A DNA stretch of 64,000 nt from an uncultured Thermoplasmata archaeon (GTDB lineage: Archaea > Thermoplasmatota > Thermoplasmata > Lutacidiplasmatales > UBA184). The notes under the pieces were generated by a model, which did no database searches, was not told the DNA's origin, and was given only the letters and a program-made list of their open reading frames with translations. The position numbers and the translations under genes are program-made. The stretch lies in contig CAWDQO010000006.1 in NCBI GenBank assembly GCA_963804525.1, positions 154,500 to 218,499 of the forward strand. Reading direction: 5' to 3'. This document shows positions 32,316 through 61,537 of the stretch, piece after piece (within the stretch, counting starts at the first letter, position 1; each line of letters opens with the position of its first letter).

Positions 32316-35300
32316 TCAGACGACGAACTTGTCTTCGTCGTCGGCCGAGTCGGGGCCCGGATCCCGTTCCGGGGGAGTCCGGAGCCGCACGAGGGCGAGG
32401 ATCGCGACCCCCCACCCGACGACGGCCGCCACAAGCAGGCCGGCGACGAGGGGCGTGAACGTTCCGAACGCCGAGCCACCGGTCGACGACGTCGCGACCG
32501 GGCCCACGTCGACCGTGACGTTCGCGTAGGAGGACCGGAGCGACGCATCGGTCGCCGTGACGTTCACGAGGTACGTCCCCGCCGATGTGTAGGTGTGGGT
32601 CACGTTCTCCCCGTGGCCGAGCACGCCGTCCCCGAACGCCCAGACGAACGAGCCCGGCCCGACCCCTCCGAGGAGCCGGGCGTGGAACGCGAAGCTTCCG
32701 GAGCCGTTCGTGCCCGCGTCCGCGACGATCACGACCGACGGCAGCGCGTAGACCGTCACCGGGACCGAGGTGACGTTGGACCCCCCGGTCCCGTTGTCCA
32801 CGACGGTGACGGTGGCGGTGAACGTGCCGGCGACCCCATAGGTGTGGTCGGCGGTCGCGCCCGACCCGTTCGTCCCGTCGCCGAACTGCCACGTGTACGC
32901 GAACGGTCCCGTGCCGGTCGCCGTCGCCGTGAAGTTCACGACGACGCCGACGTACGCCGGGGAGGGGTTGACGGCGACCGAAACGAGGGGGGCCGCTCCC
33001 GGGCTGACGAGGACGTCGGTCGCGACGATCGCCGTGCCACCGTAGGCATCGCTGACGTGGAGCAGGACCTGGACGAGCCCGAGCGTCGTCAGGCGGGCCG
33101 ACGCATTGACGAACACCTCCGTCGGGCTCGTACGGGTGACGTTCGCCGGCTCGAACGAGAACCCCGGGAACGAGTAGATCGCCTCGACGATCGGGTCGTC
33201 CGTCCCCGTACTGATCGCGGTCGAGAACGTCGTCGTGAACGGCTCGGGGCCGCCCGGGCCTCCCTCAATCGTCCCCGGCGCCAGGGGCGCCGGGGTCGCC
33301 GCCACCGGAACCGTCGTGGCGAAGCCGGAGCCGAGCGCGTCGTACGGAACGACACTCGCGAACGCCGTCACGTTGTTCGGCCACGGGACGACGACCGAGT
33401 TCCCGGTCGTGTTCCATACTTGCACCCCGCCGTCCGTGATGTTGGCGGTCGTATTGCCGGTCCCGACGAGGTACGATGTCGCCGCCAGGGCCGGGACCTC
33501 GGTCAGGTACGCGACGTATCGCGTGACGGGGGCCGATGGCGAGAGCGAGGCGGACCAGTTGACGCCCACGAGCAACGCGCCGGCCGAGCTGTTCGCGACC
33601 GGCGCGAGCGGGCCGGACCATACGTCGCGCAGGAGCGGCGCTCCGACGGCGACGACACCCTGGGCGTCCGTCACCGTTGTTTGAACCGTCCCGAATCCGA
33701 CCCCCCCGAGGAAATCTACCGGGACCACCGATGAGTTGTTGGAAGAGAGCGCGGTCACGGTGCTCCCATTGCCGAGCGTGATCTCGAACTGGAACGGGGC
33801 GGCGCCGCCCGTCGCGGTCACGTTCACTCCGATGAGCGACGAGCCGTGCCAGAGGGTTCCAGTCGGGAGCGACGTCACCACGGTGAGGGGAGCGAGGGGG
33901 GATGCGGACGGGGTGACGACGGTCGCGTTCGTCGTGTTGGCGAACGTCTCAGCGGTCACGGTGATCCGGTACGACACCCCGGCAGCGAGTCCGGTGACCG
34001 TGGTCGCGGTGACGTTGCCCACCGGGAGGGCTTCGGCAAACCCGGAGGCGGTCGCATTGATGTCGACGACATACCCCCGGATGTCCGTCGAGGACTCGGT
34101 CCAGTTCAGGTGGTAGCCGCCGGCCACGGTGGTGGCGTTCGCCGGCCCGAATCCCGGGGCCGCGGGCGAAGGGATGGCGCACGAGGCGGTCCCCCCCGTC
34201 ATCGCGAGCGTGTGGCCGACCGGCGCCCCCCAGGAGACGCCCGCCGACCGCTCCGAGACCCAGTAGGTGAGGGTCCCATTCTCGCTGGCGACGTCGAGCG
34301 AGGCTGTCACGTTCGCCAACGTCCCGCTCGCCGGGGTCACGACCTGGGTGAACACCGGCCCGCTCGGCGAGCACCAGAGCGCCCCGACCTCGACGGCGGT
34401 CGCCCCCCGGGGGTCGGCGACGGTGAGATTGGCCGAGACCACGCCCGCCCGACCGGTCGCGGATGTCACGGAGACGGCCGCGGGGGACTGCCATGTCGCG
34501 CTCCCGTTGGGGAGGAACTGGCCCGCAACGCCGCCGTAGCCGGCCAGGGTTCCGTCCCCGGTCCCGATCCGCCACGCCGATCCGGTGGCTCCGTCGGGGA
34601 CGATCGCGAGGGTCGGGTACCCACCGGTCCCGCCGAACGATTGGGCATCCGGACACGCAGCGAGCGCTGCGGACCCCGAGCACGCCCCGCTCGTGGAGGC
34701 GGTCGCGATCCACGGGAACGACTCCTCCGCCGACGACGAGGCGTTCCAGTACGAGGCCGATGTGACGAGCGGGACTCCGACCGAAGCGAGAGAGTTCCGG
34801 TCGTAGGTGTTGCAGGCGGTCGCCCCCGACGCCGACGGGCAGTCGGTCCACCCGAACGCCACGTCGTACGGCGTCGCCCAGCCGGGATCGGAGGCGTTCG
34901 ACTCCAGGTACCGGGGGTCGACGGGAACTCCGGTCACGGTCGTCGCGGCCCCGAACTGCCACCGGGCCGATTCCGCGGGGTTCGTCGAGTCGTTGACCCA
35001 GGTCGTAAGGGGGCTACTTCCACCGACGATCCCCCGGGCCGTGACCAGGAGCTGGTCTCCCGGGGCAAATCGCCCCACGCTGTCCGACGATGGCCACCCG
35101 CCCCCGAGGACGATGTTGTCCTCGCATGTCGGGACCCCACTGACCACGCCGGTCGCGCTCGCGTTCTGGCAGAGCGGGTCGCACGACCCCGACGGGACGA
35201 GGTCCCGAACGGGCACCTGCGCGACCCAATCGGGGGAGGCTGGAACGACCGAGGGGCTGTACGGCGGGTAGAGGGTGACCGCCAAGTACGACGCGCCGTC

Positions 35301-35693: not shown

Positions 35694-35714
35694 CGGTCCG
35701 CCACGCCGTCGCCG

Positions 35715-35724
35715 GGATTTAAGG
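35715..35724 (-). promoter_or_regulatory. TATA-like element for the 32316..35693 gene
   Basis: The minus strand reads CCTTAAATCC, centred about 27 nt upstream of ATG 35693, which is consistent with a leaderless transcript. Confidence 0.35.
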
Positions 35725-35801
35725 TGCCGAACCGACGTCGCCGTCAGACGGCGCCAGCGCGTCGGAAAGGGTTGCGGGGTGTCCGCGCCAATCGCCCGAC
35801 G

Positions 35802-38800
35802 TCAGCTGCTCGGCGGCGGGCTGCCACCGTAGGTTCCGCCGTAGGTGTCCGAAGCGCCCTCAGCGCCCTCCGGGGCTCCCATCGAGCCTTCCGGGGGAGA
35901 CGACGAGTCGCCGCCACCGCCCCGGCGCCGCATCAGGACGACCGCTGCAATCGCCGCGACGAGGACGACGACCACGAGAATCCCGCCGATCAGGAGTGGG
36001 GAGATTCCGGACGCGGAGCTGTTGGTTCCCTTGACCGGGCAGCTGTCGTTGAGGTTGCACGGCGGGACGACGACGACCGACTTGTTCAGGACGAACGTCA
36101 CGGGCGCGGTGAGCTCACCGGGCCGGACGAATACCTTCGCGGACGTCGTGTTGTATCCCGTCGCGGTCACCGTGACGGTCCAGTAGACGTCTCCGAGCAA
36201 CGTGACGTTGAACGCGCCCCCCGGCGCGATCCGCTGGTCCCCCCGGCTCCGGTGCCCGTGGTGTGGCTCGCGTTGACGGCCGTCAGCACCGCGACACCGA
36301 GCGCCGTGATGGGGGTGATCGTCCCGATGAGGAACCCCAAGTTCGTCAGTTCGACCGAGATGGTCGACGTCTTGCCCGGGGTCACGGTCACGTTCTGGTA
36401 CGACGTGTTGTACCCGGACGCCGTCGCGACGACCGCCTGCTTCCCGCCGAGGGTCGACTGGTTGAACGTCGCGCCCGTGAACGTCGAGACGGGCACGCCG
36501 TCGACGGTCACCGCCAAGCCGGGGTACGTACCGGCGAGGGTCCCCCGGATCCAACCACCGACGAGGGTGATGGTGTTCGAGGTCGTCGTGCTCGGGCTGA
36601 CCGTCACGAGCTTGCTGAAGTTCGTGACACCGGTCCCCGACGCGTTGAGCCAGTAGTTGCCCCACGTCTCCGTGACGTTGTACACCCCGTCGGTCGCGTT
36701 GATGGCGACTGCGTGGTTGTTCAGGAGGAGCGTCGCGGTGACCGGGCTGATCCGTCCCGCAATCCAGCCGACCGTCTTTACGAGGTTGATCGAGACGACC
36801 GTCGTGGACCCCGAAGCGACGTCCACCATGTGGTTGAGCAGCGGCTGGTAGAGGTTCGAGGCGGAGGCGTTCAGGAAGTACGTCCGGCCGCTCGCGACCG
36901 AGTAGTTGAACGTCTCGGTCGTCGCGTTGAACCCGTGCAGACTGACGACCGCGCCATCAATCGTGAGACGGGACTGGGTCGTGTTCGGGGAGAAGAACCC
37001 CGCGATGAACGCGCCCGGCACGTACACGTACGTCACGAACAACAGGTCGCCACCGGTGTAGTTGAACGTGTCGGAGAACGCGGTGGTGTTCACCGCCCCC
37101 GAGAAGTTCGAGAACGACGAGACCGTCGTGAGGTTGTGCGGGAACCAGCCCGGCGCCGAGATCGAGTGCGTCGTCCCGATCGCCCACGCCTCCGCGCTGG
37201 GAAGCGCGAGGGTCTCGACCGCCCCATTCGTCGTGACCGTCAGGTTCACGTTCGTGATGTTCGTGTCGAAGGCGACGGGCTCGGCGAGGGTCACCATCAC
37301 CGAGGTGTTGTAGCTGTTCGTGCAGCTGGACGACCGGCAGTCCATCCAGGTCGCGTACGTCCCCGCGTTCGTCGCGGCGAGGCCGTTGTAGAACCCGATG
37401 GTAATCAGCCCCGTCGCGAGCACGCCCGACGCGCTCGTCAACTCCGAGGAGACCGACCAGGTCGACCCGGCGTTGGTCGAGTAGATCGCGTAAAGGTTGA
37501 GGTCCCCCGTCGATTCGCTCATTCCGTAGAAGCTCACCCAGATCGTCCCGTCCGGCGACACCGAGATCGCGGGCTCGAGGTAGGCCGTCGACTTGGTCGC
37601 GGCGGTGAGGATCTTCGCGCTCGACCACGTCGAGCTTCCCGAGGTCCGCTCCTCGAAGCCGATGGCGGGGTATCCCTGGTCCGAGCTGCCGACCGATTCG
37701 TTGTCACTCCAAACGAGGTAGCTGTTCCCTTCGTACGTCGAAGTGGTCGAGCCGTCGATCGCGAAGCTGGGAACCGTCGAAACGATGCTCGTAAACGGAT
37801 TGTCCGTGACGATGAACGAGTCCGGCGCCGACGACCCGACCCAGAGCATGTCGACGTTCGGGGTGGAGTCGGTCGCGGAGGGCGTACTCCAGGTCACTCC
37901 GTTGTTGGTCGAGGAGACCTCGTCCCAGTTGGTCACCCAGGCTCCGGTCGTGGAGTCCCGGGTCGCGTTCCCCCAGTCCGAGTAGACGATGTCGTCGACG
38001 CCCGGGCCGATCGCGACCCGCGGGTCGAACGAGATGTTCCCCGAGACGTTGACGGGGGTGGACCACGACATTCCGCCGTTCGCGGAGACCGAGGCCTGCA
38101 CCCGGCCGGAAATGAAGAAGTTGCAGACCCCCGCATCGAACTGGAGGTGGAACAGGTCCCACGTCGTAACCGCGACGTCGGTCGTTGTGTTGATTGCGAC
38201 GGAGGGGTCCAGGGGGACGTTGTCAAAGTAGTAGCCGGACGCGTAGCCGACCGCCTGGCAGGTACTCGACATCGTCAGGTAATCGACGTACGTCTGCTGC
38301 TCGACGACCGTCGTGTTGACCCAACTCGCTCCGCCATCGATCGAGCGGGCGACGGAGATTCCGGCCGGAGCCTCAATCCCCGGGGCGCTCGTGCAGTTCC
38401 CGCCAAAGGCGACGCACTGGGGCAGGAACTCGTCCCCGAGGAGGACCGTGCCGTCGTTCGCGGCCGCGAGAGTCACCGAGGCGAACGGCGGGGGGCCGTT
38501 GGTGACCGGGTAGTAGAAGCCCTGGAGCGAGCCGTTCGTCGGGCTCGACGGGTTGAGCCAGCTCGAGTTCTGCGGGAGCCAGTTCGGAGTCCACGTCTGG
38601 CCGCCGTCGGTCGACCGCTCGGTCTCGACGAAGCCGTGCTGGTAGAGTTGCGGGGAGATCGACGAGGACGAGCAGAACGACCCTCCGGAGCCGCTGTAGA
38701 GGAGGTAGTCCGAACTCAGACCTGCGAGAAGCGTCTGGTTTGTCCCGTTGATCGCCGTCAGTGCGGAAGTGGTCGAGCACGGGGCGTTCAGGTACGTGTT

Positions 38801-39202
38801 GCCCGCCAGCGCTTGCGGCAGGGGGGTGGCGCCGAGGCCATCGAGCGAGTGCGATTGCTCCGTGGCAAGTCGGGCGCTAATCGGTTCGTTGAGGGTCGCC
38901 ATCGAAATGGCCGGGTTGGCGCGGAGCTCCTGGACGATCGCTGGGAGGGAGTTCGCCGGGCTCGTCGGGGCCGGCGACGCTCCCGGGACCGTGAGGTTCG
39001 CCGGGGCGGCGGAGCTCGGCATCGGCAGCGAGCCCGCGAGGGCGGGCAGCGGAAGCGCCATGAGCACGGCGACGGCGACCGCCAGGAAGGCGGCCGCGCG
39101 GATCGTCCGGAAAGGTCGGGTGGTCGTTCGGGTCGAAGCGCTCGCGCCGTCGGTCATGGGGGTTGCGGTCATCGTTGATTCTCCATATTTGACTCTTGTC
39201 AT
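35802..39202 (-). CDS. large surface protein with Asp-box (BNR) beta-propeller region and C-terminal beta-sandwich repeats, TM anchor; frame broken in this assembly
   Basis: Five SxDxGxTW-type Asp boxes (STDGGQTW, SIDGGASW, SANGGMSW, STNNGVTW, STNAGSTW). The signal is FLAVAVAVLMALPLPALAG. ORF 36167..39202 continues in ORF 35802..36665 (..GAFNVTLLGDVYWTVTVTATGYN...TM LLIGGILVVVVLVAAIAAVVL plus a Gly/Ser/Pro tail). The break is at a C6 run (36239-36244). One added base gives 3402 nt, or 1133 aa. Confidence 0.8.
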
Positions 39203-42200
39203 GCCTCGCCTTCCGGGGGAAGCGCTGGCATCGTGTACTCGGCGTTGTCCGGGGTGCCCGGCTCGGCCCCTTCGGTCGGTGCCGCCTCCGGCGCTGCGTC
39301 CGCCGCGGGGGACGCCGGCGCCAGAGCGCGAAGCCGACGAGGGCGACGACCGCGAGCGCGGCGACCCCGAGGATGAGGAGGTCCGAGGTCGGGATCCCCG
39401 CCGAGCCCGACGCGGCGGTCACGACGACGATCGACTGGCTCTCTGTCGCCGTCCGGTTGTACGGGTCGGTGACGGTCACCGTCACGACGTACGTTCCGGG
39501 GGACGAGTAGGTGTGTTCGGTGAAGTTCGCAGGGGTCGTGAGCGCCGAGCCATCGCCGAACTTCCACGTGTAGCTGTAGGTGTACGGCGGTACAAGCACG
39601 GCGACCGCGGCCGACAGGAGGACGCTTTCGCCCGCGAGCGAGCCGGTCGGGACCTGGAGGGTGAGGACCGGGGGAACCGGTTCGTAGACCGCGGTCAGCG
39701 TGCCGTTGCCCCCGACAGTGAGGTTCGTGCCGGTGATGTTCAGCCCACCGGTCGTGTTCAGGGCGGTGAGGACGTCCCCGAGGCACGGCGCGGGGTGGGT
39801 CGCGTAGACGCCGTATGTGAGGTTCAACGACGAGCCGTTCGTCTCGGAGACCCCGGCGAGGTAGAGCGACCCGCACGCGGCCGGAGTGATGAGGACGGTG
39901 ACGTTGTAGGCGGTCGGCGTGAAGATCGCCGTCACAATCGCGTCGGAGGAGAGATAGACCGACCCGTTCACGATGATCGCGCCGACGGTCGCGCTCCACG
40001 ACTGGAACGAGTAGTGGGCGCACGGGAGGGGAGCGATCGTGTACCCGTAGTCCTCGGTGAGTTCGGTCGTGGCGTTGCTCGTGTACGATTGACCGGCGAG
40101 CTCGACCGAGCCGCACCCGGTCGGGCTCGTCTCGACCCCGACGCTCGCGAGCGGCCGGAACACCGCCTCGACCGACCCGCTCGAGTTCACGTAGGCGACC
40201 CCGTTCGCGACGACGACCCCGCCGGTCCACTCCCACCGGACGAACCCGTTCCCCGCGCAGGGGGTCGCGGAGATGGGACCGGAAGTGTTCGCGGGGACGT
40301 TCGTGTAGTTGGTATCGTACCACCGGAGCCCGAGGTACGAGATCGACCCGCAGGTGCCGGGGTCGGTCTGGAACTCGAGGAACGACGACGGGGCGCTTCC
40401 GGTGAGCCAGACCCCGAACAGCGTCCCGGAGTCGTTGACGGTGAGCACGCTGCCGAACAGGTCCATCCCCATCGTGGGGGTCAGGCCGAACTCGTAGTGG
40501 CCCGAGCAGGAGTTCTGGGAGACGACGTGGGTCGTGTTGTTCTGGACGACGAGGACCGTGCCGTTGTGTTCGAGGGCGCCGTCGAACTCGACCGTGCAGT
40601 ACGAGGGGCTCGTCACGATCGTCACCTCGGTCAGGACGTAGTTCTGCTCGAGGATCGAGCCCCCCGCCGTGACGGTCAATTGGTCGCCCGCGAGCGAAGC
40701 GCCCCCGGACGTCAGGAAGTCCCGGAACCCGTAGTGGGCGCACGGGTCGGAGGCGACCGGGTACGCCGTCGAGTTGACGAAGAGGCTCGTCCCATCGGTG
40801 TAGCCGACCCCGCGGTAGAGGATGGCGCCGCACGCCGCGGGGGCCGTATCGAACGTGAGGGACGCGCCGGCGCTCGACGTGATGTAGTTCGCCGTCAGCG
40901 TTCCGTTGCCCCCGGCGATCAACGTGTCGCCGACGAGCGTGAGGTTCCCGTCGAGGGTCCAACCGGCGAAGCTCTCCGAAGAACACCCGGTCAGGTTCGC
41001 CACCGACGCCGGGATTCTGTACCCGGAGGCTGACCGCCTGGCCGGCGTTGTAGACGACCCCGTCCACCTCGACCGAGCCGCAGCCGGTCGGGGCGGTCGT
41101 GAAGTTCACGACCACGAGGGGGCGGACGTACGTCCAGTTCGCGGTCACGTTGCCGGTCCGACTCACCGAGAGGTTTCCCGCCGTCCCGTTGGAAGCGATG
41201 ACCTGGAGGCCCGGGGAGGTCGTGTAGTGCGAGAACACGAACGGGTAGCACGAGGACGAGGAGATCGGGTAGAGCCCTGGGGGCAGGGTCACCGTCGAAC
41301 CGTTCGTGTAGAGCGTCCCGTTGAGCGTCACGTTCGTGCAGAACGCGGGGATCGTGAAGGCGGTGACCTGGAAGAGCGGCAGCGCTCCCCGGAAGACCGT
41401 GTACGGTTGGCTCGTGACGTGGATGCCGGCGTCGTTCGTGACGACGACGGTGTAGTTGATCCGCCCGTTCACCCCGGACGGGATCGTGGCGTTGTAGACG
41501 CCCCGCTGGCTCGTGCCCGAGACCCGCGACATCGCGAGGGTGGTCACGGCGCCGCCGTTGAGGGTGTAGTTGAGTTGGACGCCCGCGACCGACCCGAGGT
41601 CGGAGACGTGGGCCGAGACGTTCAGGCCGAGCGTCGGGCGCAGATAGCCGGCCCGGCTGTTGTTGTCGACCTTGTCGATGAACGTCGGCACGAAATCGTG
41701 CTGGAACGGACCGTTCTGGATGTACTCGGTGTAGAAGCCCCCGAAATCGTCGAGCGTGTACGGCCCGTCGTCCCCGAAGTTGAGCTGGGAACCGTTCCAG
41801 GAGAACCACGGGTAGAACCCGGTTCCGCCACCCGAGTTGTAGTTCGGACAGTTGGCGACCGGGACCACCGCCGACGAGCTGCACTCCGCGCTGGCGGAGA
41901 CCGGAGCGAAGGTACCTGGTAGTCCCCCGAATACCCCGCCGATGCGTTGACCCAGTACTCCGGGATCCCGAAGCCGACCGACGGGCTCCCGTCCCAGACG
42001 GTCTGGTTGTACGAATTGCACGCCGCGACCAGCACACCGAACGGGCAGATATCCCACCCGAGGCCGAGGCCGACCGGAATCGTCCAATTGAGGAAGCACA
42101 CGTCCGGGCACGACGAGTTGTAGTACGGATGGAACGAGAACGAGCCGGTGTTCGCCGCGCTCAGCTGGAAGCTGATGTTGTTCGCCGGCAGCGGGTCGGT

Positions 42201-42938
42201 CGAGTCGTTCGCCCAGACCCAGAGGCCGGTCGTCTCGTCGATGCCGCCGTCGAACGTGACGTTGTACCAAGTGTTCCCGGCGATCCCGGAGGGGCCGGCG
42301 AATCCCGAACCGTTCCCGATCTCGTCGCCGACGCACCAGAAGCTGTTGTTCCAGACGAGGGTCATGTTGGAGACCGCGCTGCTCCCGCAGGCGGTCGCCG
42401 AGGCAGATTCGTTCCGCAGCGACCACACCTGGAGCGAGAGCGACCAGTACACGGTCGAGTTCACCCCGGTATCGTTCGGCTGGAACGTCAGCTGAGCGTA
42501 CGACTGGCGGAACGCGCTCGCGGGGTCGCCCCCGACGACCATCCCGACGAAGAAATCGTTGTAGGCGTACGGCTGGCCGGGCGACCCGCCCGTCGGCAGG
42601 TAGACCGGCTCGGTGAACCGCTCCCCGGAGCCCGGCGCGCTCGAGGAGAAGATCCCGTGGACGGTGTCCTGGGCGATCGGTCCCGGGCACGTCTGGTACG
42701 CCTGGATCGGGCTGGGGGGGAGGTAGTTGCCGTCGAGTCCGTATCCGAGCGGCGGGTTGGGGCACCCGAACGCCGGACGGGGCGCCGCCGGAGCAGCCGC
42801 CGCGTGGGCGGGGGAAGTTTGGGGCGCCGTCGCATTGACCGTCCCGACGCCCGCCCACCCGGTCGGGATCGCGAGCACGGCGAGGATCGCCACGATGCCG
42901 AGCGCGGTGGCCCAGTGGCGGGTCCGTCGAGCGTTCAC
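39199..42938 (-). CDS. large surface protein: novel N-domain, about 7 Cys-containing InlB-B-repeat-like modules, PKD domain, TM anchor; three frame breaks in this assembly
   Basis: GTG 42938 (MNARRTRHWATALGIVAILAVLAIP). The path runs ORF 41622..42938, then the frame of 39199..42858 (break near 41912-41928), then ORF 38877..41003 (break at GTACC 41019-41023), then the tail ...SPAADAAPEAAPTEGAEPGTPDNAEYTMPALPPEGEA (break about 39311-39322). Repeated modules include TAPTGCGSVEVDG / TSPTGCGSVELAG / ITPAACGSLYLAG, each followed by PC..Y.F..W. PKD signature YTWKFGDGSALTTPANFTEHTY. The corrected length is 3741 nt, or 1246 aa. Confidence 0.75.
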
Positions 42939-42989
42939 GGGGTTCCCTTCGAATAGGGGACGGCTACAAATGCCTTGGCCAGCCGGTTC

Positions 42990-43331: not shown

Positions 43332-43419
43332 GGGGGCCTCCGGTGAGCGCGGGCGGACGTCGGCGACGGGGGCGGGGCGCGACCGGCGAATGCCATCGTC
43401 CGTCCCGCTCCCCCCTCGA

Positions 43420-51155: not shown

Positions 51156-51160
51156 ACATG

Positions 51161-51172
51161 GCTAAAAACCTC
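51161..51172 (-). promoter_or_regulatory. TATA-like element for the 49008..51155 transcription unit
   Basis: The minus strand reads GAGGTTTTTAGC, an A/T island in the 160-nt gap after the duplicated genes. Confidence 0.35.
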
Positions 51173-53425: not shown

Positions 53426-53483
53426 GCCGTTTCCCCCGCGGGCGGGCGGGTCATGGACCCCCGGTCCTAACGATTCGGTCAGC

Positions 53484-55625
53484 TCACTCGAAGTGGCCGA
53501 CCCCGCCGCCCTTCTTGGCGCTCGCCGCATCGAACTTCGACCCCATCGGGCCGGACTTCGCCGCGACCCGCATGGCCACCGGCTTGTTCTTCATCTGGAC
53601 CCGCACGAACCCCGCGCCCAGGAAGCCGGCCGCGGCCGCCTGCAGCGAGATGTTCGCGACCCCCACGTTGTTCCCGATCCCGATCTGCTGGACCACCGGA
53701 AGTGGCGCCGGCGCCGCGATCGCGAACGGCGGAGGCACCGGGGGCGGCGGCGGCGGGGCGACCCCCGCCGGGCCAAGACCCGGGGTCAGCTCGACGTTCA
53801 GGTTCGCGAGCGGGAACGACTCGGTCACGAGCGAGTTGTTCGTGTACGGCACGAACGTCGCCGCCGAGTAGAGGCTATCGACCGCCGTGCTGCCGCCCGC
53901 GTGGCATTGCGCGGTCGTGCACGCGTCGACCGGCACCGTCCGGAACGGTCCGCCGACCGCGATCACGTTGAACGACGCGGTCCACGTGTCCCCCACGAAC
54001 ATCTGGTTCTGCGACGCGTTCGAGCTCCAGTTCCACCCGAGGAACTTCACTCCGCCGACGTTGGACTCGACCGGGGTCCCGCATCCCTTCAGGTCGAGTC
54101 CCGCCCGCTGGCACTGCTCCGACGGGTCGAGGATCGAGGCGTTCGCCATCGCGATGTTCCCGAACGGAACGAACGTGAAGAGCGGCCGGTTCGACCCGGC
54201 GGCGACCTGCGTCTCCAGGATCGGCCCGAACCCGACCTCCCGGAACGCTTCCAAGAGGGTCGGATTGTTCAGGTTCGGTTTCGTCGCCGGACCGTGCGGC
54301 ACATACTGCAACGTCCCGGTCTGGCCGTTCGGACACGTGAAGAACGAAGGACCGTCCCACGTCCCGCCCGTCGCCGCCGCCATGTCGCATCCCGCGAGGA
54401 GCACGTGCTCGACATCGTTCACGACCGCCGAACCGCCCGGTCCGCCGTTCGTCCGGCCCGCGGGCCATCCCTCCGATAGCGGGTCGGTCGAGGTCGTCCA
54501 GAGGTCGATCATGTCCACCGTGCAGACACCCCCGATCGAGTCGGTGCACGTCGGGGAGGTCTTCGTGAGCCGGGCGATCGAGTCGTTGATGTTCCCGTCC
54601 TGGCTCCGGACCCATCCCTCGCAGTTGGGGCTGCTGCCGTCGAGGAACGTGTACGAGGGCTCGCAGGTCGGCGTCTCGCTGCAGCCGGGGTCGCCGGAGT
54701 AGTCAGAGGCGCTGACGCAGTAGTTCTCGATGTAGTTCGGGTCCCGGGGCGCGGTCGACCCCATCCAGACGATGACGTGGTGGGTCGCCTCCGACCACGT
54801 GAGGCCGCTCCCGATGATCGTCCCGTAGAGGGCCGTGATCATCGAGGAGTGGAGGATGTTGTCGGAGAAGTCCGAGTCCCCGTAGACGTAGCCGCCCCCG
54901 AGGACCTCCGCCTGGAACGTGGAGGTCACCGCCGAGCCGAAGTCCTGCGACGGGACGAACTGCTGGATGTCCACGTGGTACTCCGAGCCGTCCCCGTCGT
55001 CGAACTTGTCCTTCGTCGCGAAGTAGTCGACCATGGCGAACGAGACGTGCGAGTGGGGGTTCGCCTCCGAGATCGCGTTCGCGATGTCCTGGGCGTGCGC
55101 TACGAAGAACGGCACGCCGTTCGATTCCTCGCACGGGACACCCGCACTGCCGGCGGCGCACTTGTCCGAGCCCGGGTCCCCCGCGCTCGGGTCGTAGACC
55201 CCATCGTAGGCGGTCGTCTCGATGACGAACGCGACCTGGACGTTGGGCCACGCGAGGTAGCCGGAACCGTCCGCATCGGCAGAGAGGGTGACGCGGGAGA
55301 TGCCGGTCCCCGCGGCGCAACTCGATTCCTGGTAGGCGCAGATCGAGCCCGGGCTGTCGGAGATCCCGAGCGTGAGCGCCCCAAACGTCGAGGAGTCGGC
55401 CGGGGCGGCCGCGACCGACACGCCCGAGGTGAGTCCGTCGTGGGACGCCGTAGTCGCCATCCCCGCGACCGCGACCGTGGTGGCCGACCCGGGGATGTAC
55501 GAGAACGTCACGAGGGCGAGGAGGACGAGCGTCCCGGCGAGGGCGAGCGACCGGGTCCAGCGGCTGGTCGGCGACGCCACGATCGGTTCGGCCCCTGCGT
55601 TCCGGTTGCGCTTCTCTTCGCTCAT
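53484..55625 (-). CDS. Cys-rich secreted protein, family B, copy B (intact); possible weak vWA-like N-domain, Pro-rich linker, hydrophobic/basic C-tail
   Basis: ATG 55625 overlaps the stop of the giant gene (ATGA). 713 aa. Signal or anchor SLALAGTLVLLALVTFSYIPGS. Alternating strand/helix blocks VAFVIETTAYDG, VSFAMVDYF and HHVIVWMGSTAPRD hint at a Rossmann/vWA-like fold without a clear DxSxS MIDAS. There are about 20 Cys, then PPPPPPVPPP, then LQAAAAGFLGAGFVRVQMKNKPVAMRVAAK. Confidence 0.75.
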   Translation of the reverse strand: MSEEKRNRNAGAEPIVASPTSRWTRSLALAGTLVLLALVTFSYIPGSATTVAVAGMATTASHDGLTSGVSVAAAPADSSTFGALTLGISDSPGSICAYQESSCAAGTGISRVTLSADADGSGYLAWPNVQVAFVIETTAYDGVYDPSAGDPGSDKCAAGSAGVPCEESNGVPFFVAHAQDIANAISEANPHSHVSFAMVDYFATKDKFDDGDGSEYHVDIQQFVPSQDFGSAVTSTFQAEVLGGGYVYGDSDFSDNILHSSMITALYGTIIGSGLTWSEATHHVIVWMGSTAPRDPNYIENYCVSASDYSGDPGCSETPTCEPSYTFLDGSSPNCEGWVRSQDGNINDSIARLTKTSPTCTDSIGGVCTVDMIDLWTTSTDPLSEGWPAGRTNGGPGGSAVVNDVEHVLLAGCDMAAATGGTWDGPSFFTCPNGQTGTLQYVPHGPATKPNLNNPTLLEAFREVGFGPILETQVAAGSNRPLFTFVPFGNIAMANASILDPSEQCQRAGLDLKGCGTPVESNVGGVKFLGWNWSSNASQNQMFVGDTWTASFNVIAVGGPFRTVPVDACTTAQCHAGGSTAVDSLYSAATFVPYTNNSLVTESFPLANLNVELTPGLGPAGVAPPPPPPVPPPFAIAAPAPLPVVQQIGIGNNVGVANISLQAAAAGFLGAGFVRVQMKNKPVAMRVAAKSGPMGSKFDAASAKKGGGVGHFE
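53496..54840 (-). repeat. near-identical 1.34-kb segment of a 2165-bp tandem direct duplication (copy B)
   Basis: See 51331-52675. Similarity continues at lower identity to about 55600 versus about 53400. Confidence 0.9.
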
Positions 55626-58600
55626 GCCTTCCCTCCCGTCGCCGGGGGGCTGCTTCCGCCCGACCGACCCGCGCGCCTCCGGCTCAGGAGGACCGCCGCC
55701 AGTCCGACCGCCGCCACGGCCGCGAGCGCGACCCCGATCCCGATCCATTCCATCGACGCCGCCGGAGCCGCGTTCGGGCTCAGCGTCGGCAGGCTCTGCA
55801 TCGAGACGACGACCTGCGTGGCGGGCGTACCCGTCGGGGAGACCGACACCGACGTGTTCGAGTATCCGCCGTACACCCCGGTCAAGGTGAACGACCCCTC
55901 GGGGAGCACGATCTGGAACGCTCCGGAGCCGCTCGACTGGAACGACTCGGAGACCTTCTTGCCGTCCGAGGCGGTCCCGACGACCGTCACGCCGGCCCCG
56001 GCAGGGGCGCGCCCGACGCGGCGTTGACCACGAGGCCGAAGACGTTCGTCTCGGGCGGGTACATCGTGATGTCCCGGACGGCGGGAGCCCCGTTCAGGGA
56101 GACCGCGACGTCCACATCGGCGTAGTTCACGGGGAGCGGTCCATCGTAGACCGCGGTCAGTTGCGTCGTCCCGTTCGCGAGCTCGAGGGAGTACGTCCCG
56201 GAAGAGCCCGTGGTCGCCAGGACCACGCCCGCGTCCTCGATTTCCACCCCGGAGAGCGCGCTCCCGGTCAGCCCGTCGGTCACGCGACCCGTGACCGCGT
56301 ACGTCTGCGTCGAGAGCGTCAACTTCAGGCCCGTCACGGGTCCGTGGACGACCACGGGGAGCGTCAGCGTCGCCTCACCGGGGGCGGTGACGACGAGGTC
56401 GTAGGTGCCGTACAGGACCGTGAGGGTGAACGCACCCGACGACCCCGAGGACGCCGAGCCGGCGACGACGCCGCCGACCTCGGCCGCAACGACCGCTCCC
56501 GGTAGACCGGCTCCGTTGGCGAGGACCGTCCCGCTGACAGGGTAGGAGGTGTCGGTTCCGAGGCGGTTCAGGAACTCCGTGGCCGCGAGCGTCGTCCGAC
56601 CGCCGACGATGACGACGTTGACGAGCCCGTCCGCGTATCCGGACGCCGAGATCGTCACGACGTAGGCGCCGGGGGCGCCCGCGATCGCGTAGTGACCGCC
56701 GACGTCGGTCGTGGCGCCCACGCACACGCCTCCGGACCACACGGGGCACGCGAACACCTGGGCCCCGACGATCGGGACCGTGGTCGCGTTGTCGTAGACG
56801 GCGCCCACGACCGACCCGAACGCCTCGAGGAAGATGCTGCCGACGTTGACGTGCTCACCCGCGGCGACCGAGACGGTCAGGTACGTCGAGTTGTAGTCGA
56901 TGTCGGAGACCGCCAGGATGTACGGCCCGGCCGGGACGACCATGAGGAAACTCCCGGACCGGGTCGACTGGACCGTGTAGAGGCACGGACCCGTCGGGCT
57001 TCCACCGACCGGAGAGCACGCGCTCACGTTCGCGCCGACCACCGGGAACCCGGCGGGCAGGCCGAGGACCGTCCCGGAGATGTACGCGGGTTGGAACACC
57101 GGGATCGGGGTCAGGCCCACGTAGCAGTCCGAGCAGACGTCCGCGAGCGTCGGACCGATCGAGATGAGCCCCGTCGCCGAGACGTTGATGAAGTTGAGTC
57201 CCGGCGTCGCGTTCACCCAGAACTGCCCGGTGCCGTTCGTCTGCGCCGTGCCGCACTCCCGGGCTCCCCCGAGACAGTCGGTGATGTTCGCGCCGACCAC
57301 CGGGACGTCACCGGGCTTCGACAAGACGACGCCCGCGACGACACCATCGCCCGTCATGTTGACGAGCGGGACGGTCGTGATCTCCCCGGCCACGATCTTC
57401 AACCGGGTGGCGTTCGGCTCGTAGACCGCGCGGCTGTAGTTCGCCCAGTCGTTGCCGGGCGGGCCGTCGACGAGGAACTGGCCCTCCACGTTGCTCGTGG
57501 AGAGGTCGGTCGTCGTGGCCTCCAGGTCCCCGATCGTGGACACGGTGAGGGAGACGCCAGGGAGCGGCAGGTCCTTCACCGGGTCGATCACCGTGCTGAC
57601 GGTGGGGAAGGTGCTGTAGTTGACCTGCGTCGAGTCGGCGTACCCCCAGTGGTCGATCGTCCGGTTCTCCGGGGTGGAGGTGCTCGAGTTGTACACGCTC
57701 GTCGCGCTATAGTTGACCTGCGCGTAGAAGCTCGTGTTGTTGTAGTCGTTCCCCGGGCCCACCGAGAAGTGGACCGCCGGGCTCGCTGCGGCGGAGACGT
57801 TGTAGAATCCCCCGCCGTTCGTGACCGTCGACGAGGTGTAGATGAGCGCCGACCCGGACGGGGTGGAGCTCGCCGACACGGGCAGGTACGAGGCGGGCAG
57901 GTAGGTGTTCGCCGTGACGACGATCCCGGTCTCCCATCCGAAGTGGAGGAGGGCGAGAGAGTCGGTCTCGTACGAGCCGCCGGGGAGGAGCTTGCCGGGG
58001 TACTTGACCTGCTGAGTCTCCCACGCCCCCGGGACCTGCGAGTTGTACGAGGTCTTGTTCGCCGGGTTGCCGGCCGGGAGGAAGAACGTGATCCCGCCGC
58101 TCCCGTTCGCCATCCAGGCGACCGACCCGGTGTTGTTCCCGATCGTGCTGACGGAGACCGTCGCGTACCGGATCGGGAGGGGCGTGAGCGAGCCGGCGTT
58201 CGGCAGGTAGCTCAGGTTGTTCCAGACGTTGAACGTCAACGACGCGAAGATGTCGAGCTTCACCGTGCCCGGAACCGCCACCGTCAGCTGGTTCGGGCCG
58301 ATGTTCACGGAGGTACTGTTCGGGTTGAACCCGCCGTTCGCGCTCGACGAGATGCCGGTCGCCGAGGGGTTGACCGCGACCGTCTCCGTGGTTCCGGGAA
58401 GGCCCCAGACCTGGAACGCCCCCGTCGGCCCGACGTCGGAGACCGGTCCGACCTCCTGACCGCAGGCCCCCGAGACGGTGCAGACGCTCACCTGGTCGAT
58501 CGTGCCCATCTGGAACGAGTCGGTGACCGTTGGCGACAGCTGCACGTAGATCAGGTTCCAGGGGTTGATCGTCACGTTGCCGAACACCCACGCGAGGGGT

Positions 58601-61537
58601 TCGAGGTCGACCGTACCCAAGTTGTAGAACGCCGCTCCGCTCGAGTTCAGGTACACCGAGTCCGGCTCATAACCGGGGGCCGAGATGTTCAGGAAGTAGA
58701 GCCCCGCGGGAATGGTGAGGTTGAAGAATCCACCGGTGTCGGTGCCGCTCGAAGACTGGAAGCACGTCCCACCCTGGGCCGGGCACGCCTGGTAGTTCGA
58801 GGTTTGGACCCCGAGTCCGGTCGTGTTGTCGACGAGGCGTCCGACGAGCCAGGTCGCGACCTGGGTCGCGTTCGATCCGCCCGCGGCGCGGGCTCCCGCG
58901 AGGACGGGCTCGGCGCCCGATCCGTTCGACCCCGAGGGGTAGAGCGTGAGCGTCGAGACGTTCGTCTGCGCGCCGACCGTCGCGTTCACCCACGCCCAGT
59001 CGGTCGAGTAGCCGGCCGCCGTGACGACGACCCGGTAGGTGGACATCGGGAGCCACCCGCCGATCACCTGGCCGAGGTAGACGCCGTTCGAGCTGACACG
59101 GCCCGCGCCGAGGTTCGGGCAGGTCGACGCCGTATCCGTCAGCGGGCAGACCTTCGCAACCGCCCCGAGGACGGCGTTCCCCTGCGGGTCGACGACGCGA
59201 CCCTCGAGGGTGGCGAGCGGCTGGAGGCCGATATCGCCGACGTAGATGTTCTGCTGCGAGACGTTCACTTCCGCCCAGATGTAGTCCGGCTCGTAGCCGG
59301 AGGCGGAGACCTTGACGTAGTCCCACCCGAGCGGGGCCGGGAAATTGAACTGGCCCTTCAGGTTCGTGGCGCCGTCCTGGCAGGCGACGGGGTACGTCGG
59401 CGACACCGAGCAGACCTCGAGGGAGGCGAGAGGGAGCCCGAAGTTCGTCCCGGCCTCCGTGACGTTGCCGAGGATCGCCCCACCGGCGGTGAGGTTGACC
59501 GTGTCCTGCATCATGTTCCCCGGCTGGCCGACGGCGACCCCATGCGGGATGCCGACGAACGCTTCGGGGACGGAGACCCACGTGAAGTTGTTCGGGTAGA
59601 GGTTCGAAGAGACGGTCACGAGGTCAGGGCCCGGCGCGGCCGGCGCACAGAACCCGTCCCCGTCCGAGGGCTCGTTCCCGCAGGCCCACGTCGCCCACGG
59701 GGAGGTCAGCCGGTCCCAGGAGTACGTCGGGGCGACGTTCGCGTAGTTCAACGAGGAGACCGTGATCGAGAAGTCCGCCGGAGCGGTCGTGGTCCCCTGG
59801 ACCGTCACGTTGCCGTGGATGTACGACCCGGCGGTGAAGTTCATCCACCCGAAGAGGGTGGACAGCCGCGGCGTGACGTTGACCCAGGTCTGGTTTTCCC
59901 AGACGGGGATGTCCGGGACGTTCCCAAAGTTCGAGTAGCCGGGGATCGGCCAGGTCGGCACGCCGTTCCCGCAGAGCCCGGTGTAGTCCGGTTCGATGGT
60001 GACCTCGTTGCGGAGCGGGGAAGCGATCATGTCGACCGCCGTCCCGATCGACCCGGCGCACGAGGTGGCGCAGCCGCTCGTCGAGGTGTTGAACGTCGGG
60101 GTGACGCTGTTGATCGTGTATCCGTCCAGGGAGCACGTGGAAATCGTCCAAATGCCGGTGTGGGCCGGGGCGGACTCGGTCGCGTAGTAGTCGTTCGCGG
60201 TCATCCCGCCCTGGACCTCGACCCCGCCGTCGGGGGTCAGGTTCACGGGTTTCATCCAGTAGGCCCCCCCGGCGTACGGTGGGAGGTTCCCGATGGTGAC
60301 GGTCGCGGCGGCATAGTCGGTGACCTGGATGACGGCGTAGGAGGGACCAGGTTGGCCCGCGGCTACGAGGACCGTCGGCCCATGGGTGTTGGTTCCCCCG
60401 AGGTTGCCCTGCTGCGTCGCGCCGCATCCGTTGAGGAGCGAACAGATCTGGAGCGAGCCGGAGTTGCCGCCGAGGAGCGGTCCGCCGGTGACGGCGTCGG
60501 TCAGGTTGACCTTGACCTCGGCCATCCGTTCGAGGTAGATGGTGCCGAGGTTTTCGACCTGGCCCGGGGTCCCGTTCGTCCAGGTCGTGTTCGCGAGGTA
60601 GAGTCCGTATGGCGGGGTGAACGTCACGATCGAGGGGCTGTCGGCGAGCGCCACCCGGAACGAGCCGTTGGCGAGGGAGGTGCCCGTCGGGCTGAGGAGC
60701 GTGCTCGAGTCGGTCGTAGCGTCGGACACGACGATCCCGGACAACGTCGGATAATTCTTCGGGACGTCGGCGCGGATGATCCCGATCCCGATCGCAGACT
60801 CGACCTCGAAGATCGTCCCGACGAACGTCTTGGTGGCGTTGCCCGCGGTCGCGTACGTCAGGTTGCTGAGGTACCAGTCCGTGGTCGCCTGGACGTAGTC
60901 GAAGCCCACCGGTCCGGAGACGGTGAACGAGCCGTTCGGGGACGACGACACCGCGGCGCACGTCGTGGCGGGGCAGTCCTGGCCGTTCGCCCCGAACGCC
61001 TCCACCGTGGCGCCGTCGATCGGGAGGTCCGTCTCCCGGTTGGTACACGTAGCCCGAGAACAGGCCGGTCGCGATGTAATAGGACGGGTGCGGGGCGGCG
61101 GGCGCCGCGGCAAGGGCCGCCGGGTCGAACGCTTTCCCCTGGGCGGTGGCGTTGTCGAACGCTGCGAACTGGGATTCGTGGAGGGCGACCTGGCTTCCGT
61201 AGGCGGCGTCGAACGGCTTCTCCCCCGCGGGGTTCGCGCCCGGGAGACCGCCGGTCGAGACCGATGGGGTGAGTTTGGCCGCGGTCGGTGTCACCGTTGC
61301 GGCATGGGTCGCCGCCGGCCCGGAGCTCGTGGGGGTCGTCGACGCGACCGCGCCGACCGAGATCGCGGGGAACGCCATGACCATCACCGCGATCGAGAAC
61401 GCGAGCGCGTAGGCCATGCGCCGGGCCCAGCGGGGGACCGTCGCGGGGTGGCTCGCGGACCCGTTGCCCATGGGCATCGGGGAGGCCAGTTTACTCTCGT
61501 CGAAAGACGTCCGCGGGGAGGTCCGCGATGACGGCAT
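55622..61537 (-). CDS. giant surface protein (about 1971 aa) made of many carboxypeptidase-regulatory/transthyretin-like beta-sandwich repeats, C-terminal TM anchor; two frame breaks in this assembly
   Basis: ATG 61537, or ATG 61417 (MAYALAFSIAVMVMAFPAISVGA signal). The N-part ORF 59624..61537 joins ORF 55987..61113 at GGTAC 61042-61046 (..GLFSGYVY/NRETDLPIDGATVEAFG). ORF 55622..55990 supplies the last repeat, TM (WIGIGVALAAVAAVGLAAVLL) and tail; that break is in 55991-56005. There are dozens of G.V.D..TG.P..GA.V-type repeat starts. The corrected length is 5916 nt. Confidence 0.8.

Follow-up and report, generated by a model that had tools for sequence, protein, structure and literature searches.

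Several AAA ATPases that act at membranes have been described. FtsH, m-AAA and i-AAA, as well as Msp1/ATAD1, possess an N-terminally tethered AAA ring whose entry side faces the membrane, and they extract membrane proteins. PEX1/PEX6 and the Cdc48-Hrd1/Derlin machinery of endoplasmic-reticulum-associated degradation (ERAD) employ Cdc48-clade double rings at the membrane that pull clients, among them glycoproteins in the case of ERAD, through or out of the bilayer from the cytosolic side; these motors are soluble and are recruited by adaptors. BatA and BatB of the Bacteroides Bat system are membrane-anchored VWA proteins, and in this system, as in the MoxR-VWA systems, the gene for an AAA+ ATPase lies beside a VWA gene. 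Finally, MBA of Sulfolobus (Serek-Heuberger et al. 2009, cited in PMC3493965) is an archaeal AAA protein held in the membrane by its N-terminus, which PMC3493965 places in a group separate from Cdc48, PAN, AMA and Vps4. Here we analyze a stretch of 64,000 nucleotides, hereafter the window, from an uncultured Thermoplasmata archaeon of the order Lutacidiplasmatales (assembly GCA_963804525.1, contig CAWDQO010000006.1, positions 154,500 to 218,499 of the forward strand), in which a cluster of ten genes encodes a membrane-embedded tandem AAA ATPase together with large surface proteins. We propose that the cluster specifies a multi-subunit transmembrane AAA+ machine that, judged by source names, occurs only in Thermoplasmatota, and in addition a set of lineage-specific surface glycoproteins on which the motor probably acts. 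That the motor and its partners form a dedicated complex has in our estimation a probability of roughly 0.85.

The cluster ATPase resembles Cdc48, VAT and p97 in its tandem classical AAA domains (D1 and D2) with their lids, in its Walker, sensor and arginine-finger motifs and in having one aromatic and one LAG-type pore loop. It differs from them in that a membrane region of about 620 residues takes the place of the double-psi-barrel/beta-clam N-domain, the aromatic pore loop is in D1 and not in D2, the HbYX motif is absent and D2 is dispensable in its relatives. Its predicted layout, a first transmembrane (TM) helix (TM1), an ectodomain of ~155 aa, further TM helices and an AAA ring beneath the membrane, may be compared with that of FtsH, which has an extracytoplasmic domain between TM helices, but it includes about 10 extra helices; set against the FtsH and Msp1 group it has no M41 domain, about 11 TM helices in place of one or two, two AAA rings, and dedicated co-encoded ectodomain, VWA and small TM partners. 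The adjacency of an AAA+ gene and a VWA gene recalls MoxR-VWA and BatA/BatB, but the cluster ATPase is membrane-embedded and belongs to the classical AAA clade and not to that of MoxR (its best families are PF00004 and CDC48/PAN/FtsH, with AAA_5 matches only secondary), a poly-proline stalk is predicted to hold the VWA head outside the cell and there is no DUF58-type partner. The likeness to PEX1/PEX6 and ERAD lies in the use of a Cdc48-clade double ring at the membrane; here, in contrast, the membrane domain is covalently fused to the motor, and unlike in ERAD no ubiquitin-like tagging components were seen in the cluster. As regards MBA, no crenarchaeal-named protein occurs among the 41 matches to a profile of the membrane domain that are described below. 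An analogy, with no homology claimed, may be drawn with integrins on the basis of a stalked VWA-type head, a beta-propeller (in g9, below) and single-pass proteins with short, motif-bearing cytosolic tails and, as part of the analogy, control from within the cell. Unlike in integrins, the metal-ion-dependent adhesion site (MIDAS) in the cluster is degenerate and no cytoskeletal link is known. The first-pass annotation of this DNA, made from the letters alone, had not recognized the combination of a TM-AAA ATPase with surface proteins as a described system, and we found no description of it in the literature searched. Among the membrane-anchored AAA unfoldases it is set apart by a new membrane domain, an extracellular crown and a conserved four-gene core.

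The cluster and its membrane-embedded ATPase

From position 61537 down to 32316 all of the coding signal is on the minus strand and resolves into 10 co-oriented genes by open reading frames (ORFs) and GC3 frame plot, in a window of ~70% G+C. Reading frames were corrected by a frameshift-tolerant codon-usage Viterbi procedure, giving products of 1972, 713, 702, 715, 637, 1219, 113, 1247, 1133 and 1125 aa for g1 to g10, respectively. The strand, gene order and sizes first proposed for this cluster are upheld by these three approaches.

55622..61537, minus strand: g1, giant surface protein (ORFs, Viterbi, Pfam)
53484..55625, minus strand: g2, divergent VWA-domain protein as judged by hhalign, 713 aa
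51319..53425, minus strand: g3, tandem paralog of g2 (ORFs, Viterbi, sequence comparison)
49008..51155, minus strand: g4, candidate ectodomain subunit, 715-aa ORF (family hidden Markov model, AlphaFold2, Foldseek)
47098..49011, minus strand: g5, distant paralog of g4, 637 aa (ORFs, sequence comparison)
43420..47077, minus strand: g6, membrane-embedded tandem AAA ATPase, 1219 aa (Pfam, PDB sequence search, orthologs)
42990..43331, minus strand: g7, small 2-TM protein of ~110 aa, start uncertain (tblastn orthologs)
39199..42938, minus strand: g8, Cys-module/PKD surface protein, ~1247 aa (Pfam, Viterbi)
35802..39202, minus strand: g9, BNR/Asp-box surface protein, 1133 aa (Pfam BNR_2/BNR)
32316..35693, minus strand: g10, fn3/PKD surface protein, 1125 aa, intact ORF (ORF, Pfam)

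The g6 protein is a tandem AAA ATPase of the Cdc48/VAT clade in which a novel membrane domain of ~10 helices replaces the N-domain. It begins with a Pro/Ala/Lys-rich N-terminus of ~95 aa, predicted to be a disordered cytosolic tail, which is followed by TM1, the ~155-aa ectodomain, ~10 TM helices, a linker (...FEAYFTSRLGGTNVGTRVAEM, with the strongly conserved form FEAYFTSRLGGTxVGTRVAEM), D1 and D2. Pfam detects AAA (E 5.6e-86) and AAA_lid_3, each in two stretches, so that the double AAA module called in the first-pass annotation is borne out. In a phmmer search of PDB sequences the AAA part is closest to VAT (5vc7/5g4g), p97 and Cdc48, with E ~1e-128. An intact ortholog (L018) scores 537.9 bits against NCBIfam TIGR01243 (CDC48), below the cut-off of 802.65 because the Cdc48 N-domain is absent, and the score against TIGR01241 (FtsH) is 451 bits, below the cut-off of 600 and confined to the AAA part. 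The best 25 of 41 Pfam families that matched are all of AAA or P-loop NTPase types and do not include Peptidase_M41. The N-terminal 529 residues have no Pfam match at E<=10, and thus none to CDC48_N or CDC48_2, and this N-domain drew no match from NCBIfam or PADLOC either. The HbYX pattern is [hydrophobic][FY]x at the extreme C-terminus (PMC3493965); the orthologs end in ...SYGTRG, ...SYGTRA or ...TYGTRQ and do not carry it. In the PADLOC scan the matches to the ATPase were all of a generic AAA kind (IetA, TRIP13), and the seven partners had no match.

Both rings of g6 possess Walker A, Walker B (DE), sensor-1 and RPGR arginine fingers. The D1 pore loop is KWYG (KYYG/KWVG in VAT) and that of D2 is ALAG, as in D1 of p97. 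D1 is intact throughout the family, whereas D2 lacks Walker B or is missing in distant homologs, and D1, the membrane-adjacent ring, is therefore taken as the conserved engine. The distant homologs P0033, P0044 and P0140 have one AAA domain each, and the C-terminus after it is of low complexity or resembles a zinc ribbon (CSNCG...CSQCG in P0044); with such members in the family the second ring appears to be optional.

An AlphaFold2 model of g6 (pTM 0.63) shows TM helices and a small alpha/beta ectodomain; a Foldseek search of the membrane-domain model against the PDB returned a best E of 0.12, an OB-fold-like match to the small ectodomain. Across the family the invariant features of the membrane domain are PF(Y)PW, YQ, D304, Gly/Pro residues and the GTRxxEM linker. 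Two other ideas about g6 were considered and dropped. The first, that the membrane domain is an exosortase/archaeosortase-like enzyme, came from the invariance of Cys434, His380 and Arg447 in Lutacidiplasmatales; in the family at large neither the Cys nor the His is kept. The other, that g7 is a C-terminal extension of the ATPase, was suggested by a frame that is open from 43700 to 42992 and by a G6 run near 43410 that might hide an indel. It is ruled out by full-length orthologs, which end in ...SYGTRG/A, and by the presence of a separate small gene in nearly all contexts.

The ectodomain proteins g4 and g5 are probably subunits of the motor

The g4 protein starts with an anchor, continues as a row of Ig/FN3/MG-like beta-sandwiches and, after a C-terminal TM helix, closes with a tail that ends in RRKEEEKRVTL. 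Its AlphaFold2 model (mean pLDDT 80) places these sandwiches between two TM helices, and a Foldseek search against the PDB matched complement C3 MG domains, FN3 receptors and adhesin repeats with E ~1e-9, all of them generic beta-sandwich arrays. Pfam, NCBIfam and PADLOC scans gave no match for g4 or for g5, whose tail ends in KAEQEQRRITL or KAEAEQRRITL. The two are distant paralogs (23% identity, E 3e-7), which confirms the paralog pair recognized earlier at 47098-51155. The tails of g4 and g5 are 16 residues long and nearly invariant, and among 73 homologs of g4 the terminal R-x-T-L hardly varies.

A profile of g4/g5 orthologs also matches residues ~35-340 of the distant TM-AAA ATPases themselves, with E values from 1e-21 to 1e-41. 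Most distant homologs carry the g4/g5 ectodomain fused to the ATPase, in the order signal peptide, g4/g5-like ectodomain, TM helix, basic linker, polytopic domain, AAA. The tails of g4 and g5 correspond to the juxtamembrane linker of these fused proteins. Where the ATPase is not fused (the window, P0013, P0026, P0046), a separate g4/g5-like gene lies directly upstream and often overlaps the start of the ATPase gene; such upstream genes matched with E 1.7e-29 and 2.7e-22, and L051_735 and L051_912 are further instances. Because the ectodomain is fused to the ATPase elsewhere and because the 16-residue tails are nearly invariant, g4 and g5 are probably subunits of the motor and not its clients. 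The first-pass annotation had made no distinction among the large products and regarded each as a client that the unfoldase serves. That part of its proposal is not supported as it stood: g4 and g5 are subunit-like in their RVTL/RITL tails and in the fusion, g2 and g3 are the VWA proteins of the conserved four-gene core, and g8, g9 and g10 are lineage-specific additions.

A conserved core that includes a stalked VWA protein

The search with the membrane-domain profile yielded 41 clusters among 1.84 billion protein representatives, and all of those with a named source come from metagenome-assembled genomes (MAGs) of Thermoplasmata or Thermoplasmatota. Nine genomic contexts distant from the window were compared. 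In these the membrane domain of the ATPase is ~25-40% identical and the flanking genes are unrelated, while a core order recurs (n=9): stalked protein, beta-sandwich ectodomain module, TM-AAA ATPase, small TM protein. Start/stop overlaps join the partners in the distant contexts as well. After the ATPase, 8 of the 9 contexts have a protein of 91-146 aa with 2-3 TM helices, and 6 of these 8 carry the motif [KR][YF]PRGxxDW, exactly or nearly so. A conserved genetic unit, with one gene fusion, is made up of the motor, its ectodomain module, the small membrane protein and, in most cases, a stalked VWA protein. A giant Big/LTD (Big_7/LTD) protein is encoded directly upstream in three contexts and an FG-GAP giant nearby in a fourth; these giants are unrelated to g1 and similar to it in position. 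As a separate observation, KaiC/RadA-like ATPase genes (PF06745) were seen a few kb from three distant TM-AAA clusters (L049:1-1368, L053:2467-3171, L054:288-1007).

The stalked protein of the core, of ~440-490 aa, has an N-terminal anchor, a globular head, a poly-proline stalk, an AG-rich C-terminal helix and a basic tail. Its head has a Pfam VWA match and an intact DxSxS in three contexts (L047, L050, L054) and is VWA-like by sequence, with DxSxS, in two more; L051 and L052 have no stalked-protein gene. In the window this position is occupied by g2, which has an N-terminal anchor, an Ig-like domain, a VWA domain, a beta-sandwich, a poly-proline stalk, an AG-rich C-terminal helix and a basic tail. 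Neither g2, searched at E<=10, nor g3 has a Pfam match, and g2 has none in NCBIfam or PADLOC. When the g2 profile was aligned by hhalign with four VWA-type proteins encoded beside distant ATPases, two of which carry Pfam VWA matches, the probability was 98.1% (E 9.9e-14, 387 columns) and the alignment was collinear over the Ig-like domain, VWA, beta-sandwich, poly-proline stalk and C-terminal helix. A search of the distant VWA proteins with a g2-family profile against single sequences was marginal (E 0.001-0.24). The VWA domain of g2 contains a large Cys-rich insert and a degenerate MIDAS, at which VAFVIETTAYDG of g2 aligns with VVLVMDSSGSMG and ExTxY stands in place of the DxSxS that the distant partners keep. 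On this profile evidence g2 and g3 are divergent VWA proteins belonging to the conserved four-gene core. They had been noted at first as near-identical Cys-rich paralogs; their close relationship stands (96% identity in DNA, 92% in protein) and their identity is now refined to divergent VWA proteins. The tandem duplication is apparently shared with the closest relative, L004.

Conservation within Lutacidiplasmatales

Lutacidiplasmatales are acid-soil archaea with ~69% GC and ~2.1-Mb genomes, and the paper that describes them does not mention the cluster (PMC9287336). A scan of one genome per species yielded 43 loci, all in Thermoplasmata-type MAGs, of which 2 are labelled Lutacidiplasma or Lutacidiplasmatales. 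The closest records, Candidatus Lutacidiplasma silvani and the Thermoplasmata MAG SMAG_U4422, are both 89% identical in the membrane domain of the ATPase. Neighbors were counted by tblastn with the corrected proteins, using only those loci whose flanking sequence reached far enough:

g5 directly upstream of the ATPase: 30 of 30 loci
g4 upstream of g5: 27 of 27 loci
VWA-like g2 upstream of g4: 18 of 22 loci
giant g1 further upstream: 19 of 20 loci
g8 downstream of the ATPase: 27 of 27 loci
g9 downstream of g8: 18 of 21 loci

Wherever the flanks reach, the order is giant, VWA-like protein, g4, g5, ATPase, small TM protein, g8, g9. Genes beyond this block differ between lineages, which argues that the block is conserved as a unit. 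Identity to orthologs is 30-60% for the surface proteins and 67-92% for the ATPase. A functional tie between the ATPase and its surface-protein neighbors, proposed before from the single locus, is strengthened by their adjacency in all 43 Lutacidiplasmatales loci with enough flank, and homologs of the ATPase are found beside large secreted proteins in the nine distant Thermoplasmatota contexts also.

The surface proteins and their tails

An N-terminal anchor, a C-terminal TM helix and a tail are evident from hydropathy in g1, g4, g5, g8, g9 and g10. The topology claimed for every large product therefore holds for these six; in g2 and g3 the C-terminal hydrophobic segment is weak yet conserved. 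N-x-S/T sequons number 26-40 per 1000 aa in g1, g4, g5 and g8-g10 versus 2.5 in the ATPase, in agreement with the sequon-dense surface proteins described at the outset. Pfam likewise supports the domains called earlier by eye: two AAA domains with lids in g6, PKD in g8, BNR in g9, fn3 with PKD in g10 and, for the beta-sandwich repeats of g1, CarboxypepD_reg.

The g1 protein consists of an N-terminal anchor, CarboxypepD_reg/PEGA-type beta-sandwich repeats (CarboxypepD_reg E 1e-40), a C-terminal TM helix and a basic tail of ~18 aa. The small g7 gene lies directly downstream of the ATPase; tblastn found its orthologs in 14 loci, and scans with Pfam, NCBIfam and PADLOC gave no match to it. In g8 an N-terminal Cys-containing domain, paralogous to that of g10, is followed by Cys-module repeats, PKD, a TM helix and, in the window, an acidic, disordered tail of ~35-45 aa. 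Among g8 orthologs the tail varies from 10 to 54 aa and has a recurrent EYTMP and often a terminal KP. The g9 protein combines BNR/Asp-box repeats (a sialidase-like propeller), beta-sandwich repeats, a TM helix and a Gly/acidic tail of 30-50 aa, and in many orthologs (loci L004-L046) the tail has [LM]P[KH]LQSDGS[MF] and TYGG motifs. The g10 protein, which was detected only in closer relatives, has the g8-like N-terminal domain, fn3, PKD, a TM helix and a 20-aa acidic tail. The conserved motifs in the g8 and g9 tails suggest a cytosolic binding partner, and the long, disordered, acidic tails of g8-g10 could be engaged by the pore of the unfoldase or by such a partner.

No NCBIfam sorting-signal match was found on g4, g5, g8, g9 or g10 and there is no PGF in the C-terminal sequences; no T2SSE-type family occurs among the Pfam and NCBIfam matches of any cluster protein, and the N-termini are ordinary basic plus hydrophobic anchors. 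The absence of a PGF-CTERM/archaeosortase signature, of a FlaI/PilB-type ATPase and of class III signal peptides, remarked on in the first-pass annotation, agrees with these scans.

Gene boundaries, expression signals and flanking sequence

Direct reading confirmed the three 4-nt start/stop overlaps reported for the cluster (ATGA at 55622-55625 and 39199-39202, GTGA at 49008-49011) and the 20-nt spacer, which contains GGAG, between the g5 stop and the ATPase ATG at 47077. The end of the ATPase gene at 43420 agrees with orthologs ending in ...FIRSYGTRG/A. The start of g4 is probably GTG 51062, which gives 684 aa, because AGGAG lies 8 nt before it and orthologs have 684-aa gene calls. TATA-like elements had been cited near four positions and were found there, together with two genes flanking the cluster:

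61565..61570, minus strand: TATA-like TTTATC, 28 nt before the g1 ATG (direct reading)
51163..51168, minus strand: TATA-like TTTTTA upstream of g4 (direct reading)
42965..42972, minus strand: AT-richer element CATTTGTA, 27 nt before the g8 GTG, a weak match (direct reading)
35717..35722, minus strand: TATA-like TTAAAT, 24 nt before the g10 ATG (direct reading)
31782..32303, plus strand: small surface protein of ~173 aa, convergent with the cluster (GC3 phase, translation)
63399..64000, minus strand: 3' part of a further surface-protein gene that runs off the window (three-frame translation)

Candidate promoters are the element at 61565-61570, for a g1-g3 transcription unit that would be leaderless, that at 51163-51168, for a unit comprising g4, g5, the ATPase and g7, and that at 42965-42972, for g8-g9. 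The spacing of 24-28 nt before the starts of g1, g8 and g10 suggests leaderless transcripts. The product of 31782-32303 has a signal peptide, one beta-sandwich, a TM helix and a charged tail, and that of 63399-64000 a TM helix and a 44-aa acidic tail. These flanking genes were known to resemble those of the cluster, and the common topology is upheld; the first is on the plus strand, and the second, on the minus strand, is frameshifted.

Several other observations concern the window at large. Rfam and tRNA scans of it gave no matches. Between 36000 and 50000 the GC fraction in the cluster is 0.65-0.70, less than the 0.70-0.75 of the flanks, and GC skew is positive, probably reflecting surface proteins rich in Asn, Thr, Ser and Tyr encoded on the minus strand. 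Just outside the cluster, at 30325-31782 on the minus strand, is an Orc1/Cdc6-type gene recognized by eye (Walker A GKTGTGKT, winged-helix C-terminus); nothing like an AT-rich origin was seen beside it. A perfect 28-bp palindrome at 6274-6301 (half-sites ATCGGTATTCCGAT and ATCGGAATACCGAT) resembles a transcription-factor operator; it is situated in an intergenic spot that is AT-richer than most. The 80 nt of the window with the highest AT content (45% GC) contain an 11-bp inverted repeat (TTGTCAGACAA at 1642-1652 and TTGTCTGACAA at 1663-1673, 10-nt spacing).

Frameshifts in the cluster genes

About 10 frame corrections were needed in the cluster genes. They fall in g1 (~61042, ~56000), g3 (~52675), the ATPase gene (~45418, +1; ~45245, -1; ~43437, +1), g8 (~41914, ~41025, ~39325) and g9 (~36231), and one further apparent frameshift near 63830 in the 63399-64000 gene brings the total to 11. 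The shift sites lack in-frame stops and codon bias is retained on either side of them; a +1/-1 pair 173 nt apart puts the ATPase back in frame; and in close relatives these genes run without a break (ATPase 1223 and 1217 aa, g8 1251, g9 1134). Sequence context is informative as well. Five of the 11 shifts are within 6 nt of GTAC, usually a G-run followed by TAC, and 2 of the 11 are at GATC, while GTAC sites are equally common inside the cluster (131) and outside it (124). At 45418 and 41914, two of the five sites near GTAC, there is an overlap with CCAGG as well. A related MAG with the isolate label MFD09222 has shifts at GATC (GGATCC) and CCWGG; the label suggests Microflora Danica, a long-read survey. 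The ATPase and g4-like genes of other MAGs are frameshifted too (P0005, P0006, P0009; L002:12040-12420 and 6880-7060). Given the absence of stops, the retained codon bias, the compensating pair, the intact relatives and the motif contexts, the frameshifts are most likely assembly, base-calling or polishing errors at methylation-type motifs and not decay, perhaps left uncorrected in a region that varies between strains. Programmed +1 frameshifting at CAG-G-TAC / NNG-GTA-C was considered and is unlikely, since the ORFs of close relatives are uninterrupted, other shifts are at GATC or CCWGG, and the related MAG has the same type of error.

Discussion

How might such a machine work? The first-pass annotation inferred that the motor serves the surface proteins in insertion, extraction, turnover or assembly. 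The model that we favor is narrower. In it, g4 and g5 would be stoichiometric outward-facing subunits docked to the motor by the C-terminal TM helix and the RRKEEEKR[VI]TL tail, and the AAA hexamer would lie beneath the membrane with D1 (the KWYG ring) toward the bilayer, as in FtsH. ATP hydrolysis would then pull on the membrane anchors or disordered cytosolic tails of g8, g9, g10, g1 and possibly the VWA protein, leading to their extraction, unfolding, recycling or mechanical remodelling, so that a glycoprotein adhesion coat would be served by a dedicated dislocase or remodeller. In FtsH and Cdc48 substrates enter at the N-terminal face of the ring, and D1 is the conserved ring, which makes a membrane-side unfoldase or dislocase the most economical proposal; by this analogy the D1 pore is inferred to face the membrane. 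For this specific model, in which the motor acts on the co-encoded surface proteins, we would offer about even odds. A bolder version holds that a hexameric Cdc48-like motor fused to a ~10-helix membrane ring and an Ig-like crown represents an unrecognized class of archaeal envelope machine, and we advance it only tentatively. If it were true, the machine, with its stalked VWA head and small subunit, would link ATP hydrolysis in the cytosol to the cell exterior, in a phylum that includes wall-less members. It might draw surface glycoproteins back across the membrane, which would make it a prokaryotic dislocon of the ERAD type, or it might exert force on giant adhesins and so serve regulated attachment or surface movement.

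A number of points weigh against these proposals. The sole basis for the direction of extraction is the analogy with FtsH and Cdc48 for ring polarity. The model of the membrane domain is of moderate quality (pLDDT 72; the four other models reached 49-57) and all of the sequences come from MAGs of uncultured archaea. The tails of g1 have only 3-7 residues in some orthologs, too short for engagement by a pore, and g8-g10 have no counterparts outside Lutacidiplasmatales, so that their connection with the motor may be a secondary one. Four of 22 loci, and L051 as well, lack the VWA gene, and the head of the stalked protein is not VWA in L053 (7584-8885) and L055 (7788-9116), in which it reads IPMD[ED]KQ...AFG[ML][LV]H[AW]LLRN.... 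These two proteins keep the poly-proline stalk and the AG-rich C-terminal helix, which identifies the C-terminal module as the conserved part. Finally, all 11 frameshifts are in surface-cluster genes and none is in 15 housekeeping ORFs (19.5 kb) in which simulated indels were recovered 88% of the time. A uniform model of sequencing error does not predict shifts confined to the cluster, and this confinement is not fully explained by the error reading.

The last observation is what would be expected if the cluster of this genome were a set of decaying pseudogenes or a phase-variable locus with real frameshifts, and the frameshifted ATPase homologs P0005, P0006 and P0009 in other MAGs would fit. 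Such an explanation strikes us as doubtful, because there are no nonsense mutations and no deletions, codon bias is intact around each shift, the ATPase frame is restored by the +1/-1 pair, the shifts occur at palindromic methylation-type motifs, the genes are intact in close relatives and g4 is 99% identical to the independent JGI gene P0060. It might also be argued that the ATPase gene merely happens to sit inside an island of surface-protein genes, because the close loci all belong to one order, within which synteny could persist by phylogenetic inertia without selection. This is very hard to reconcile with a core order that recurs in nine contexts with unrelated flanks and ~25-40% identity in the membrane domain, or with the domain fusion and the start/stop overlaps between partners, and we regard it as extremely improbable.

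The remaining alternatives accept the machine and differ about its work. It could be a housekeeping unfoldase for general membrane-protein quality control, with the neighboring giants as frequent, non-dedicated clients and with the ectodomain subunits and VWA partner sensing or recruiting any damaged envelope protein. The predicted succession of TM, ectodomain, TM(s) and AAA is FtsH-like, as are the 451 bits of FtsH_fam on the AAA part; D1 is the conserved ring; and in L051/L052, L053 and L055 the core is found among housekeeping genes without a giant adhesin. But there is neither a protease domain nor an HbYX motif for docking to the proteasome (the C-terminus is SYGTRG), the family is rare (41 clusters in 1.84e9, all from MAGs or metagenomes and none named to a cultured species) and close adjacency to giant adhesins recurs across unrelated lineages, so that we consider quality control unlikely as the general explanation. 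An export or assembly motor, SecA-like or acting as a chaperone that keeps giant pre-proteins unfolded and aids their translocation and anchoring, would account for the clients of 1100-2700 aa with N-terminal signal anchors that adjoin the motor in many lineages, and the polytopic domain, which has no known fold match, could form a conduit. However, substrates enter classical AAA unfoldases at the N-terminal face, which here would be on the membrane side, implying threading into the cytosol; moreover no aromatic pore loop is found in D2, the ring on the cytosolic side, which relatives have in degenerate form or not at all, and the core occurs without giant proteins in three contexts. We think export rather unlikely. 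Lastly, the motor may not thread its partners at all: ATP-driven movements of the AAA ring could be transmitted through the membrane domain to the ectodomain crown and VWA head and switch adhesion, in the manner of integrin inside-out activation or of FtsEX/MacB-type mechanotransmission. Fusion of the ectodomain to the motor in most relatives, the VWA head on a poly-proline stalk with a conserved membrane helix and the short conserved motifs in the cytosolic tails of g9 and g8 are consistent with such switching. The aromatic pore loop and full set of D1 unfoldase motifs nevertheless favor threading, the MIDAS is lost in the VWA proteins of Lutacidiplasmatales and a Cdc48-clade ATPase working in this way has no known precedent; we judge the chance of it to be small.

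Significance

To our knowledge archaea have neither FtsH nor SecA, and how they extract, recycle and power proteins at their single membrane is poorly understood. An integral-membrane motor of the Cdc48 clade that has a conserved VWA partner, and whose extracellular domain is either fused to it or encoded alongside, would represent a new AAA+ architecture and a candidate prokaryotic analogue of the membrane-coupled functions of Cdc48 in ERAD and of PEX1/6. The family is compact, has a four-gene core and includes a Rosetta-stone fusion that flags the subunits, which makes these ideas directly testable. The cluster occupies ~1.4% of a ~2.1-Mb genome. It is retained across an entire order of abundant acid-soil archaea and hence probably matters for the surface biology and adhesion of these organisms.

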